Shown here: positions 13,205-16,327 of the stretch, one piece after another
How the letters are laid out: each line of letters begins with the position of its first letter
Numbering within the stretch: the stretch's first letter is position 1
From: Planktothricoides sp. SR001
GTDB lineage: Bacteria; Cyanobacteriota; Cyanobacteriia; Cyanobacteriales; Laspinemataceae
DNA length: 20,124 nt
Direction of reading: 5' to 3'
Assembly (NCBI RefSeq): GCF_001276715.1
Contig: NZ_LIUQ01000077.1
Location: 3,476 to 23,599, forward strand
Notes under the pieces: generated by a model
Database searches by the model: none
Told to the model about the DNA's origin: nothing
The model's input: the letters and a program-made list of their open reading frames with translations, nothing else
Translations under genes and position numbers: made by a program

Positions 13205-13588
13205 TTAAAAAGAAATTCCCGTATCATTCATGTGACGCAGCCGTTCGGCTAAGACCTGCATCACCTCGATCGCGAAATAGGGATTTTGTTGCACCAAAAA
13301 GGTAAAGCGTTTTTGATCGATAGGGACTAATTTACAATCAGTTTTGGCGATCGCCGTGGCGCTGCGGAGATGGTGGTCTATCAATGCCATTTCCCCAAAA
13401 ATGTGACCCGCGTCGGCAGTTTCTACCACTTGTTTACCGACAATAATATCAACACTGCCGGATTGGATCACATACATTAAATTACCGGATTCTCCCGCTT
13501 GAAAAATGGTTTCACCCGCTGGAACAATTTGGGGATTCGGTTCTTTCAAAAATAAACTAAATTTTTTCCGATTCTCTAAATAGGTCAT
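13205..13588 (-). CDS. Stand-alone cyclic nucleotide-binding (CAP effector-type) domain protein
   Basis: It is 127 aa. 'IFQAGESGNLMYVIQSGSVDII...GHIFGEMALIDHHLRSATAIAKTDCKLVPI' carries the cNMP-binding 'FGEMAL' and 'RSAT' phosphate-binding cassette. There is no DNA-binding domain. Confidence 0.8.
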   Translation of the reverse strand: MTYLENRKKFSLFLKEPNPQIVPAGETIFQAGESGNLMYVIQSGSVDIIVGKQVVETADAGHIFGEMALIDHHLRSATAIAKTDCKLVPIDQKRFTFLVQQNPYFAIEVMQVLAERLRHMNDTGISF

Positions 13589-13678
13589 AGTGTTTTAGCA
13601 TCCTTTGAGTATTGGCCTCAAGGATTGATATCATAGCAAAATCATAGCAAAAATTTAACCAAAGCCGGAATCAGCGAC

Positions 13679-16327
13679 TTAATTTTCCAAGGTTAAGAGT
13701 TTTTGCCAATCAGTGATCGCCGAATCTGGCCACATCCAATTGTTAGCTAAAGCATTCGGTTGAAAATCACTTGCCGCTAATTTCATCACCATCTTTCTTT
13801 GCTTGGTCGCTTTACTTAATAAAACGTTTTTTTCCTCTGGGGAAACTCCCTCGCTAGATTTCATCATCACTAATGCTAAACCGGCATAAGCGGTCAAGGC
13901 TTCAGGATGATCTAAGGCTTGGGTGGGTTCGAGTAATGTCACCACTTTTAACCACATATCCGAAGCTAAATCGAGATTGCCTTCCGCGTAATAAGCAAAG
14001 GCTAAGGCATTGGCATAAAAGGTAGAATTGGAGTCACTTTTTACGGAGGATTCCCAAAACCGTCGAGCATCACTCACACTATAATCTTTGTTGCCAGTTT
14101 GCACAAATTGCCAAGCTAACCGACCAGAAAGAAAGTTAATTTCTGGAGTATTTTTTTTCTGGTTAGGCACCGCTTCTAAGGTGGCTTTTGCTTGTGGCAA
14201 TGCCCCGCGATCCAGTAATAAATTTACGGCAATAACTCCCTCGGATAATTTCCCTTGGGCAAAATTTTCAATGGCGATCGCGGATAACTCTGGAGTGCTG
14301 GCTTTCTGCAACGGATTCGGTTTTTCCTTAGTGGGTTCAGAAATGGGTTCAGAAGTGGCTAAACCCCGATCTTCCGTGACCGAACTGGTGGATAAAGATG
14401 TGCTGGTTTGAGGACGCGATCGCCAAAACCCGATCGCCCCAGCGAATAGGGCGATCGCCAGAAAACTGATGACCCCAAACCTCCACCTAAAAGCTTTGTG
14501 ACTTTTTGCCGGTTTTGCTAAGGCATCAGAATTGAATGCTGATGATTTCGCTTTCGGTGATGATATTGTTGATTTCGTCTGGGAGTTTTTCTCAGTCAAT
14601 TGACTTTCCCCGGCAACTGCTTTAAAAATTTCTTCCACGTCGTCAACTTCACTTTCATATCCGAGAATATGGGGCAAAAATTCATCTTTTGCAGATAGTT
14701 TCCCCGGTTTAGCTTCAGCAGATCCGAGTTTGCCAAGTCCTAACTCACTAAAAATATCAGAAACTAAAGATTCGGCGTCATTATCCGCTGCTTCTCCTAA
14801 GTCATAATCTAAAAATTCATGCTCGTCCTCATCTTCTATTTCCTCATCGAGGAATTCATCCTCACCCTCTAGTAATTCCTCATCCGAGAGTCGGAAAAAA
14901 TGATCATCATCATCGTCCCTATCATATCCTAAATCATCTTCTAAATCATCTGGGTCAGAGGGAGAAAATCGCCACAAAAAAGCGTCGCTATTACTATTGG
15001 GTTTTCGGGGAATATCCCTCAACTGCAATCGCGAATTGGGCATCGGTCGGGGGGGAATAAACAACTCCGTATCATTGCTGGGTTGCTGAGTCAAATACCC
15101 TTGATATTTCTCATGTAAATAAAGCACAGGTAGCGCCCAATACAACTGATCGGAACCGTAGGTAGACATCAATCCTTGTCTCGCCCGATTTAAACTCAAA
15201 TCTACAGGATAACCTTGTTTCAAGTTGTAGTAAAATAAGCGAGTTAAGGTCAAAGCCACCTGATCGGGAATGCGTTCGGCCATTGCCAAAACCGCCGGAA
15301 TCCCTCGATTGACCAGCACTTCGGCTAAATTACGGTGATTATTTGTTTCCGGCGTTTCCACTTTGGCGCTATGGGTACTCCGACAAGAGTTAAACACTGC
15401 TAGGTGAATGCCATTATTGACTAATAATCCGGCTAAATCATCGCCATTTAAAACTTCACCTAATCCCGTTTGTTGATTGACTAAATACAGTTCGCCCCCT
15501 CTAGAACCCAGGTTACTATGACCGGCGTAATGTAATACATGATAAGAATTTTGTTCGAGAACTTGGGTCAGCTTTTTTCGGTCGGGATGTTCGAGAATGT
15601 CTAATTCAATTTGGGGCAAAGGTGTATTTCCCCAAGTGCCATTAGTTGTCGGTTTTTTTAGTTCGGCTTTGAGGGCGTTTGCTTCTTGTTTTAAGGCTAA
15701 ATTTGCTTGATCTGTTGGTGCCGCTACGACCATTAAAATTTTCAACGGGCTGCTCGGTGGCGGGGGTAAAATTAATGATGATAAACTAGGTTGATAACGA
15801 GAAAAAATTACATCTTTGCCCGTGGCAATGGGGCGACTGTCTTCGTGGATCACTTCCCAAGGAAGACGGGGCAAAATACTGTCTTTTAGTCCTAAACGTA
15901 AGCGTAATACGGCCCCTTGGTTATGAGCGATCGCCTGTGCGGAGGTAAGGCGATCGCGCAGATCCCCTTGAAACAATGCCTCATACATTTCTCGACCCAG
16001 ATCCACCAGAGTGCGAATGTGAAAACGACTAGAAATCACCGCCACATCCCCATCTCCGGGCACAGTTTCCTCGTCCGTATCCCCGTGAGTATCATAAAGA
16101 ACATCATCTTCCAGAGACGCCGATAAACCATACCCGTGCCACAAACCGGCCACCGAGTCATCCATCAAGCGGCTGGCTTGTTCCAGCCATTCTTCCACCG
16201 GGAAAATCACCTGCTCTTCCGCAGGCAATACTCCTTTGGGTGACTCTTCGGTTCGCACCAGATAATGATTTTTTTCCCGGTTAATCGGGGTAATGGACAG
16301 ATGTAACTCTTCAAATTTTTGGCTCAC
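13679..16327 (-). CDS. CHAT-domain (caspase-like) protease with acidic linker, single TM helix and C-terminal TPR-like region
   Basis: The CHAT catalytic dyad context is 'HVLHYAGHS' (His) and 'LAVFNSCRS' (Cys), and the CHAT domain starts 'KILMVVAAPTDQANL'. A D/E-rich linker follows ('DDDDDHFF...EDEDEHEF'). The predicted TM is 'FGVISFLAIALFAGAIGFW'. The C-terminal ~240 aa carry TPR-like repeats ('YANALAFAYYAEGNLDLASDMW'). Confidence 0.8.
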   Translation of the reverse strand: MSQKFEELHLSITPINREKNHYLVRTEESPKGVLPAEEQVIFPVEEWLEQASRLMDDSVAGLWHGYGLSASLEDDVLYDTHGDTDEETVPGDGDVAVISSRFHIRTLVDLGREMYEALFQGDLRDRLTSAQAIAHNQGAVLRLRLGLKDSILPRLPWEVIHEDSRPIATGKDVIFSRYQPSLSSLILPPPPSSPLKILMVVAAPTDQANLALKQEANALKAELKKPTTNGTWGNTPLPQIELDILEHPDRKKLTQVLEQNSYHVLHYAGHSNLGSRGGELYLVNQQTGLGEVLNGDDLAGLLVNNGIHLAVFNSCRSTHSAKVETPETNNHRNLAEVLVNRGIPAVLAMAERIPDQVALTLTRLFYYNLKQGYPVDLSLNRARQGLMSTYGSDQLYWALPVLYLHEKYQGYLTQQPSNDTELFIPPRPMPNSRLQLRDIPRKPNSNSDAFLWRFSPSDPDDLEDDLGYDRDDDDDHFFRLSDEELLEGEDEFLDEEIEDEDEHEFLDYDLGEAADNDAESLVSDIFSELGLGKLGSAEAKPGKLSAKDEFLPHILGYESEVDDVEEIFKAVAGESQLTEKNSQTKSTISSPKAKSSAFNSDALAKPAKSHKAFRWRFGVISFLAIALFAGAIGFWRSRPQTSTSLSTSSVTEDRGLATSEPISEPTKEKPNPLQKASTPELSAIAIENFAQGKLSEGVIAVNLLLDRGALPQAKATLEAVPNQKKNTPEINFLSGRLAWQFVQTGNKDYSVSDARRFWESSVKSDSNSTFYANALAFAYYAEGNLDLASDMWLKVVTLLEPTQALDHPEALTAYAGLALVMMKSSEGVSPEEKNVLLSKATKQRKMVMKLAASDFQPNALANNWMWPDSAITDWQKLLTLEN

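Follow-up and report, generated by a model that had tools for sequence, protein, structure and literature searches.

The stretch of DNA analysed here (the window, 20,124 nt from Planktothricoides sp. SR001) carries two minus-strand genes, one for a protein of 882 residues that we assign to the HetF family of cyanobacterial division proteins and, downstream of it, one for a stand-alone cyclic-nucleotide (cNMP)-binding protein of 127 residues (Table 1). Their common orientation and spacing agree exactly with what the first-pass annotation had given. An AGGAG Shine-Dalgarno-like motif lies ~13 nt upstream of the start codon of the larger gene.

Table 1. Features of the hetF-cNMP locus and of its surroundings, in window coordinates
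Feature	Position	Strand	Basis or remark
Bax-inhibitor-1 family protein (BI-1)	3132..3860
MVP	8580..11204
petJ, cytochrome c6	12721..13056	+	NF045930 E 7e-45; convergent with cNMP gene
Stand-alone cNMP-binding protein, 127 aa	13205..13588	-	ATG start; PF00027 E 5.3e-20
Phosphate-binding cassette, residues 65-79	13352-13396	-	GEMALIDHHLRSATA, intact
hetF-cNMP spacer, exactly 90 nt	13589..13678	-	ORF coordinates
Two tandem extended -10-like boxes, TGCTATGAT	13630-13638, 13641-13649	-	candidate promoter, cNMP gene alone
hetF orthologue, 882 aa	13679..16327	-	GTG start (ORF list)
TPR-fold domain, residues 670-882, presumably periplasmic	13682..14320	-	model, fold and profile matches
Single TM helix, residues 617-635, FGVISFLAIALFAGAIGFW, predicted N-in	14423..14479	-	Kyte-Doolittle
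Acidic disordered linker, residues 418-616, cytoplasmic	14480..15076	-	pLDDT <50
CHAT domain (clan CD, caspase/separase-like), residues 109-402	15122..16003	-	Pfam E 3.2e-27
Predicted catalytic Cys315	15383-15385	-	aligns with Anabaena C295
L298, putative FtsI-contact equivalent	15434-15436	-	aligns with Anabaena L278
Predicted catalytic His270	15518-15520	-	by alignment
E158, putative FtsI-contact equivalent	15854-15856	-	aligns with Anabaena E130
murF	16598..17980	-	TIGR01143 E 3.6e-124; upstream of hetF

In the larger protein, the motifs HYAGHS (from residue 266) and FNSCRS (from residue 312) supply the putative catalytic dyad of the CHAT domain, and the family alignment backs this assignment, H266, H270 and C315 being invariant across 75 homologues. 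The linker that follows consists of Asp and Glu to 28% and has a net charge of -34; its most acidic stretch, residues 441-520, contains 35 Asp/Glu in 80 residues. Acidity at this position is a family-wide trait (median net charge -21). Only one segment of the protein exceeds a Kyte-Doolittle value of 1.6, namely residues 617-635 (2.15), and it is flanked by five Lys/Arg residues on its N-terminal side versus two on its C-terminal side. Since the AF2 model shows no helix at this segment, the topology rests on hydropathy, on the charge bias, and on data for Anabaena HetF, whose TM segment has been shown experimentally (PMC8406250).

The C-terminal ~210 residues are modelled as paired helices, entirely helical and with a pLDDT of 92-98. 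Foldseek matches this domain to consensus TPR, PilF, MamA, and KLC, and consensus TPR proteins also match it by profile, while Pfam TPR matches on the single sequence stayed below threshold. It contains the family-invariant tryptophans W739, W758, W792, W864, W866, and W874. A PDB sequence search with the HetF profile returned TPR proteins only and no CHAT structure; the CHAT relatives in the PDB were reached by fold search, with SAVED-CHAT as the top match and separase and Csx29 among the others. The architecture proposed in the first-pass annotation, with a CHAT protease, a poly-Asp/Glu linker, one TM helix, and a TPR-like tail, has therefore stood, and its placing of the CHAT domain in the cytoplasm and of the tail across the membrane is likely to be correct by analogy with Anabaena.

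The 127-residue protein consists, as first described, of a cNMP-binding (CNB) domain only (PF00027, 71.6 bits against a cutoff of 27.5). Its cassette follows the pattern G-E ... R-[ST]-A, with G65, E66, and R75 invariant in the family alignment, and the AF2 model (pLDDT 85) is a complete CNB fold that ends with the C-helix and resembles the cAMP-binding half of CRP, GlxR, and MtbCRP (TM 0.72-0.78, 26-30% identity). As the match to the 214-position CRP profile is limited to positions 13-132 and the C-terminal helix-turn-helix is lacking, the protein does not qualify as a CRP/FNR transcription factor. Its family, here called cNMP127 (115-127 residues, 855 matches), spans several phyla, including records labelled by source as Chloroflexota, Nitrospira, and Anaerolineae. 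For cyanobacteria, our literature search on CNB proteins that stand alone gave no result.

Relationship of the 882-residue protein to HetF

HetF, the product of Anabaena alr3546, is a characterised membrane-anchored, divisome-associated protease of clan CD through which filamentous cyanobacteria license cell division; FtsI is its partner and PatU3, a division inhibitor, its substrate. The patU3 and ftsI genes of the organism studied here lie outside the 20-kb window.

The window protein matches NCBIfam profile NF045509 (cell division protein HetF) end to end and colinearly (E 1e-227, 758.5 bits; residues 6-880 against profile positions 3-834 of 836). Because this score lies below the curated equivalog cutoff of 1200 bits, the protein does not formally receive the HetF name. 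Calibration of the profile shows what this cutoff separates: Nostocales HetF proteins score 1359-1465 bits and all non-Nostocales orthologues 764-945 bits, next to 758 for the window protein, so that the cutoff divides Nostocales from other orthologues and not HetF from non-HetF.

Aligned over their full length, the window protein and four Nostocales HetF proteins are 43-46% identical, and each domain contains conserved blocks; the N-terminal module peculiar to the family and the TPR tail rich in Trp are no exception. None of the three residues examined in Anabaena has changed: E130 and L278, which are needed for FtsI binding (PMC8406250), correspond to E158 and L298 (invariant in 75/75 sequences of the family alignment), and C295, which is needed for catalysis (PMC9457339), corresponds to C315. 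In agreement with the published organisation of HetF, CHAT-TM-TPR with a periplasmic TPR domain (PMC8406250, PMC9457339), the window protein combines a CHAT domain carrying a Cys at the predicted catalytic position and its partner His with a single TM segment and a TPR domain that would then face the periplasm. At least 588 species-level genomes contain the family; in the best 80 of these, with one match retained from each, 80/80 proteins were full-length. Orthologues have already been reported from non-heterocystous filamentous genera (PMC4365693, PMC5741684). The organism itself seems to be a non-heterocystous cyanobacterium of the Oscillatoriales type, and hence only the division role of HetF, not its heterocyst role, would be expected.

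Profile match, architecture, and kept residues identify the protein, at the level of sequence, as a housekeeping division protease rather than a death or defence effector. The joint reading that we favour, with a probability of about 0.85, is that the large gene is a hetF orthologue and the cNMP gene an independent neighbour.

Genomic association of hetF and the cNMP gene

The first-pass annotation had suggested that the 127-residue protein is a cNMP-gated regulator of the protease. The same-strand adjacency is indeed kept in five relatives with a HetF identity of 64-91% (64-65% in three of them), in which both outer flanks are rearranged. It is missing, however, from three relatives of the same clade (HetF identity 71%, 70%, and 66%) and from 79/79 more distant hetF loci, and in the 80 genomes searched, the 10 kb on either side of hetF gave 0 matches to cNMP127, even at E < 1. 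Conservation of the pairing, which the first-pass annotation had named as its own test, thus reaches no further than a narrow, shallow clade. As a synteny control we used petJ, for which we know of no obvious functional link to HetF; it lies near hetF in 6/8 distinct relative loci (7/9 with the window) and is as syntenic with hetF as the cNMP gene is. The adjacency of murF to hetF is limited to the close clade (present in L081, L083/L084, and L001; absent in L085, L086, and L088).

Viewed from the cNMP side, the association does not recur. In all, 80 cNMP127 homologues have 124 immediate neighbours, among which we found no recurrent family, and 86 loci of the family likewise show no recurrent neighbour. 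The same holds for the context of the family in other phyla, as covered by three look-ups and 80 metagenome loci. The proposed co-occurrence with CHAT proteins fared no better, the CHAT HMM giving a match at 1/86 loci; at this one (L093, a distant homologue), a small CHAT gene lies 1.4 kb away.

Within the spacer, the boxes listed in Table 1 are the only 2 matches to TGCTATGAT in the window, versus 0.28 expected, and the spacer of the related locus L082 carries TGCTATAAT twice at the aligned position. Where relatives have the pair, the hetF-cNMP gap is 76-438 nt long. It measures 380-438 nt in two of them, which together with the -10-like boxes suggests separate transcription, and a promoter of its own is probable for the cNMP gene. 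On the other hand, we detected no terminator-like site on the minus strand between hetF and the cNMP gene, and co-transcription may therefore occur. One hairpin alone occurs nearby (13157-13173), in the interval on which the cNMP and petJ genes converge; it has a terminator score for the plus strand (petJ) only. Scanned in full against Rfam at gathering thresholds, the window yielded no RNA element.

Could the 127-residue protein nevertheless serve, in this shallow Oscillatoriales clade, as a cAMP- or cGMP-gated modulator of HetF activity or localisation that couples, for instance, light to division? Survival of the pair between rearranged flanks, the short gap without a terminator-like site, the intact cassette, and the single distant CHAT neighbour are all consistent with this. 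Moreover, a nucleotide-activated CHAT protease is known in SAVED-CHAT, the top fold match, and the division requirement for HetF in Anabaena varies with light intensity (PMC8406250). We consider such gating unlikely, given the narrow adjacency, the lack of a recurrent cNMP127 neighbour also in the Chloroflexota, Nitrospira, and Anaerolineae records, the equal synteny of petJ, and the probable promoter of its own; the titles and abstracts that we retrieved on HetF and cAMP likewise show no cyclic-nucleotide link to HetF. The obligately co-inherited or fused nucleotide or RNA sensor typical of SAVED-CHAT and Craspase is not what hetF and the cNMP gene present. Slightly less likely again is the more specific idea that a CRP-like cNMP receptor recruited beside hetF targets, in trans, either the protease or its acidic linker; cAMP or cGMP would thereby tune cleavage of the division inhibitor and with it cell division. 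If true, the two proteins would do in two pieces, with a CNB domain as sensor, what the SAVED-CHAT proteases, which are activated by nucleotides, do as fusions. A functional link between hetF and the cNMP gene that is specific to this clade may exist, and the clade-restricted neighbour offers an inexpensive experimental lead, its functional tie to HetF being a candidate only.

Other readings of the 882-residue protein

Our assignment would be wrong if the protein were a HetF-like paralogue with another substrate or role and the true HetF were encoded elsewhere in the genome. The profile score below the equivalog cutoff, the many CHAT-domain proteins of cyanobacteria, and our view of 20 kb of the genome could be taken to point that way. 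Yet all non-Nostocales full-length relatives fall in the same 764-945-bit band, each domain aligns with Nostocales HetF, the N-terminal module and the TPR tail included, the functionally tested residues are invariant, and in Nostocales genomes the relative found with this query is HetF itself. We regard a paralogue as quite improbable.

Still further from the evidence, and in our view barely credible, is the reading of the CHAT protein as a death or defence effector in a programmed-cell-death or anti-phage island with MVP, a DUF6932/HTH pair, and BI-1, the cNMP protein sensing a Pycsar- or CBASS-like signal. Effector CHAT proteases are indeed found in type III CRISPR and CBASS-like systems, the fold matches include SAVED-CHAT and Csx29, and PADLOC gave weak matches (SAVED_CHAT, 21 bits; the CNB module of PycTIR, 60.6 bits; DUF6932 to PDC-M63A, 48 bits). 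These are, however, domain-level matches only, on the basis of which we rejected a defence system at this locus. SAVED, TIR, and TM effector domains are all missing from the protein, which is a full-length, widely conserved orthologue (among the best 80 of at least 588 genomes), unlike a patchily distributed defence gene. A Pycsar system was likewise rejected: the PycTIR match is confined to the CNB part (profile positions 36-143 of 288), the 127-residue protein ends after the CNB C-helix without a TIR or TM killing domain, and none of the window ORFs scanned with Pfam or NCBIfam was recognised as a nucleotide cyclase.

The neighbourhood itself does not carry a cell-death theme either. MVP and BI-1 are present, as had been noted, but MVP and the DUF6932/HTH pair are syntenic only in the relative of 91% identity, BI-1 lies ~10 kb away, and what else the window encodes has housekeeping roles (dgkA, ybeY, prfB, murF, petJ). 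The joint presence of MVP and BI-1 is coincidental, and the death or defence reading is largely refuted by HetF orthology.

Proposed function and relation to known systems

By analogy with Anabaena, the HetF orthologue would be a single-pass inner-membrane protein with the CHAT domain and the acidic linker in the cytoplasm and the TPR domain in the periplasm. Contact with FtsI would recruit it to the division site, where the His270/Cys315 dyad would cleave a division inhibitor (PatU3 in Anabaena, after Arg) and thereby permit septal peptidoglycan synthesis. PatU3 cleavage, midcell localisation, and the requirement for septal peptidoglycan synthesis are known from experiments in Anabaena alone (PMC8406250, PMC9457339). 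The 127-residue protein, in turn, is in all likelihood an independent single-domain cNMP receptor, probably dimeric and comparable to a CRP stripped of its DNA-binding domain. Its gene belongs to a widespread family without a fixed genomic partner and would have entered the hetF-petJ interval in an ancestor of the shallow clade. Transcription from a promoter of its own is most likely; a dedicated protease regulator it would not be.

The locus is largely ordinary, comprising a member of a characterised protease family and a clade-limited neighbour. The value of the analysis is mainly corrective, in that an apparent caspase-like death effector with a second-messenger partner turns out to be the conserved division protease HetF. 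Furthermore, the NCBIfam cutoff names Nostocales proteins only, and as a consequence orthologues in hundreds of other filamentous cyanobacteria remain "CHAT domain-containing protein". The calibration presented here helps their annotation and supports the view that the ancestral role of HetF is in cell division rather than in heterocyst formation.

Compared with HetF of Anabaena/Nostoc sp. PCC 7120 and Nostoc punctiforme, the window protein has the same order of N-terminal module, CHAT domain, acidic disordered linker, TM helix, and TPR domain, keeps the catalytic Cys and the FtsI-contact residues at 43-46% identity over the full length, and belongs to the same family, which is restricted to cyanobacteria, mostly filamentous ones. 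It differs in its longer and more acidic linker (net charge -34 versus about -25), in being flanked, in its clade, by murF and a stand-alone cNMP gene, and in its score below the Nostocales-tuned cutoff.

With separase (C50), SAVED-CHAT (8tl0), Csx29/TPR-CHAT (7zoq, 8eey), and DdvA (8rot), HetF shares the caspase-like CHAT fold and the His/Cys dyad (Foldseek E 4e-7 to 2e-3, at 10-19% sequence identity). As in Csx29 of type III-E CRISPR, a TPR module is joined to the CHAT domain; as in the anti-sigma factor DdvA, there is a membrane anchor; and like separase, HetF would, judging from Anabaena, cleave a specific regulator. Unlike SAVED-CHAT and Csx29, it has neither a SAVED sensor nor a Cas partner, and in contrast to these CHAT and clan CD relatives its TPR domain lies C-terminal to the TM helix and would thus be placed on the other side of the membrane. 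Its role would be in housekeeping division, not in defence or sigma-factor control as for SAVED-CHAT, Csx29, and DdvA. The 127-residue protein, finally, agrees with the CRP/FNR N-terminal domain in its complete beta-roll, its cassette (G-E...R-S-A), and its long C-helix, the helix that dimerises CRP, but has no helix-turn-helix or other output domain.

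The 882-residue CHAT protein and the HetF family

Both ORFs lie where the first-pass annotation had placed them, separated by 90 nt, and its description of the larger product holds in every particular. A Pfam CHAT domain spans residues 109 to 402 (E 3.2e-27), with HYAGHS starting at residue 266 and FNSCRS at residue 312; Asp or Glu occupies 35 of the 80 positions of the acidic stretch at residues 441 to 520; and a Kyte-Doolittle scan gives residues 617 to 635 as the sole hydrophobic segment. The bias in Lys/Arg around this single TM segment, five in the 15 residues before it versus two after, predicts an N-in orientation. 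As for the TPR tail, Pfam matches of the single sequence stay below threshold, but fold and profile both identify it: in an AlphaFold2 model built on an alignment of 75 homologues, residues 670 to 880 are all helical and very confident (pLDDT 92 to 98), with fold matches to consensus TPR proteins, PilF, MamA, and kinesin light chain and a profile match to consensus TPR proteins as well. In the same model, the CHAT core is of moderate to high confidence and residues 418 to 667 are disordered. Fold matches of the protease domain include SAVED-CHAT, separase, Csx29, and the anti-sigma factor DdvA, a placement consistent with clan CD, the class to which the literature assigns HetF.

The window protein is a member of the known, experimentally characterized HetF family. 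The NCBIfam equivalog NF045509 ("cell division protein HetF") aligns positions 3 to 834 of its 836 with residues 6 to 880 (E 1e-227). At 758.5 bits the score is below the 1200-bit cutoff, which we calibrated on the proteins retrieved with the window protein. Those of Nostoc linckia, Nostoc minutum, and Rivularia score 1359 to 1465 bits, versus 764 to 945 bits for those of Laspinema, Coleofasciculus, Phormidesmis, and the nearest Oscillatoriales MAG, so that the cutoff distinguishes Nostocales proteins from those of other cyanobacteria rather than HetF from non-HetF proteins. Orthologues scoring below it consequently bear merely the public label "CHAT domain-containing protein." Among the hetF loci of 80 species-level genomes (L001 to L080), the cutoff catches Nostocales alone; full-length orthologues of Oscillatoriales, Coleofasciculaceae, and Leptolyngbya-like taxa reach 764 to 945 bits. 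The family comprises 1839 protein clusters at E <= 1e-10, and at least 588 species-level genomes contain a relative, the best 80 relatives all covering the full length. HetF orthologues of the non-heterocystous Arthrospira, Lyngbya, and Oscillatoria have been reported before (PMC4365693, PMC5741684).

Identity to Nostocales HetF is 43 to 46%, in an alignment that spans all modules. In Anabaena HetF, E130 and L278 are needed for FtsI binding and cell division (PMC8406250), and C295 is the CHAT catalytic cysteine, with PatU3 being cut after Arg117 (PMC9457339). When Nostoc minutum HetF is read from a GTG start two codons upstream, these residues fall exactly on the Anabaena numbering; they correspond to E158, L298, and C315 of the window protein and are invariant in 75 family members. 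The acidic linker is a HetF family trait as well: its net charge has a median of -21 in 75 sequences; Nostocales linkers are at about -25, and that of the window protein, at -34, is the most acidic. We consider it probable (roughly 0.85) that the window protein is a HetF orthologue acting as in Anabaena. The present analysis establishes homology, architecture, and residue conservation, whereas topology, partners, and substrate are inferred from the experiments in that organism; in the published CHAT-TM-TPR scheme, the TPR domain is periplasmic. FtsI would thus anchor the protein at the septum, where the cytoplasmic CHAT domain would remove a PatU3-type division inhibitor, and loss of this inhibitor would allow septal peptidoglycan synthesis to go ahead.

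Features of the window discussed in the text
Feature	Position	Strand	Details
Release factor ORF	1727-2680	-	317 aa only; TTG start; PCRF and RF-1 domains
MVP	8580-11204	-	874 aa; full-length eukaryote-type; Vault repeats and shoulder domain
HTH_3 protein	11573-12094	-	downstream of DUF6932 gene; 4-nt overlap
DUF6932 protein	12091-12537	-	upstream of HTH_3 gene; 4-nt overlap
cNMP127 ORF	13205-13588	-	127 aa; ATG start
hetF orthologue ORF	13679-16327	-	882 aa; GTG start
murF-hetF intergenic region	16461-16616		two tandem ~70-nt units, 88% identical
First unit	16467-16535
Second unit	16539-16607		overlaps murF stop codon
CyRepA1 partial match	18792-19289	-	ORF; profile positions 279-446
CyRepA1 partial match	19700-20071	-	ORF; profile positions 32-119

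MVP and other neighbouring genes

The cell-death-themed neighbourhood suggested in the first-pass annotation proves to be coincidental. Synteny of MVP and the DUF6932/HTH pair is kept only in the relative L081 (HetF 91% identical), whose MVP is 97.6% identical; MVP is absent from the other hetF-clade loci, and the remaining window genes are housekeeping (dgkA, ybeY, prfB, an ABC ATPase, murF, and petJ). Bacterial and cyanobacterial MVP homologues have already been described (bioRxiv 10.1101/872010, PMC3762200). The DUF6932/HTH_3 pair, located between petJ and MVP, is possibly a two-gene defence or toxin-antitoxin-like module; nearly the whole of its DUF6932 protein aligns with PDC-M63A, a phage-defence candidate in PADLOC (E 3e-13). 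A wider defence-system theme was rejected, the PADLOC matches being at the domain level only.

Each unit between murF and hetF is a hairpin of heptamer runs (TTATTGG three times, CCAATAA three times) with arms up to 94% complementary. Neither has an Rfam match, and the tandem resembles a small palindromic element of the REP/MITE type. The match of the release factor ORF begins at PCRF profile position 28, as would fit prfB if its N-terminal part is read in another frame via the usual programmed +1 frameshift. CyRepA1 is a cyanobacterial plasmid replication protein (NCBIfam model), and the two ORFs resemble pieces of a broken-up or decayed replication gene, located beside chromosomal-type housekeeping genes.

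The cyclic-nucleotide-binding gene downstream of hetF

The 127-residue protein (cNMP127) had been proposed to regulate the protease, and we examined the adjacency from both the hetF and the cNMP sides. No cNMP127 homologue was detected by tblastn within 10 kb on either side of hetF in the 80 species, even at E < 1. Among the eleven closest HetF clusters, the order hetF, cNMP127, convergent petJ recurs in five loci, with HetF identities of 91% (L081), 79% (L082), 65% (L086 and L087), and 64% (L088); no cNMP127 was found beside hetF in L083/L084 (71%), L001 (70%), or L085 (66%), where hetF adjoins petJ directly. Between hetF and cNMP127 lie 76 to 438 nt, depending on the locus, and the outer flanks vary, with murF upstream in some loci and a serine recombinase in others, and DUF6932/HTH/MVP, AIM24, CheB, or a WD40 giant downstream. 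In L086 (4159-7807) and L088 (1184-2554), a large serine recombinase lies directly upstream of hetF, at the position of murF in the window, which suggests a mobile-element insertion; in L086 a HinfI-type restriction-modification pair lies alongside.

A regulatory link to HetF specific to this clade is quite improbable. Its one positive argument is this shallow synteny; petJ, which has no obvious functional tie to HetF, is equally kept, near hetF in six of eight distinct relative loci (seven of nine with the window) and present in every one of the six loci with a cNMP gene, so that synteny at such depth is by itself no sign of function.

Seen from the cNMP side, a CHAT gene nearby is a single exception. 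The cNMP127 family has 855 clusters (proteins of 115 to 127 aa). Only nine share 77% identity or more with the window protein, and those that follow, at 55 to 67%, include records source-named Chloroflexota, Nitrospira, and Anaerolineae. Three context look-ups returned unrelated neighbourhoods, L093 having a small CHAT gene 1.4 kb off, and no Pfam family recurs among 124 immediate neighbours at 80 metagenome loci (at most STAS, 4, and MFS, 3). A CHAT HMM run over all ORFs of 86 cNMP127 loci (463 kb) matched at L093 alone. There (5001-7720), three small genes separate a distant 123-aa homologue from the CHAT-domain gene, which lies downstream and encodes 327 aa.

Two tandem TGCTATGAT boxes in the hetF-cNMP127 spacer, the sole two matches in the window versus 0.28 expected, suggest a candidate promoter serving the cNMP gene alone; TGCTATAAT occurs twice at the aligned spacer position of L082. 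No terminator was found between the two genes. Most likely, cNMP127 is an independent small cyclic-nucleotide receptor. It consists of a cNMP_binding domain (Pfam, E 5.3e-20) whose CNB fold is complete and whose phosphate-binding cassette is invariant. The fold superposes on the half of CRP proteins that binds cAMP and dimerises, and no output domain is present.
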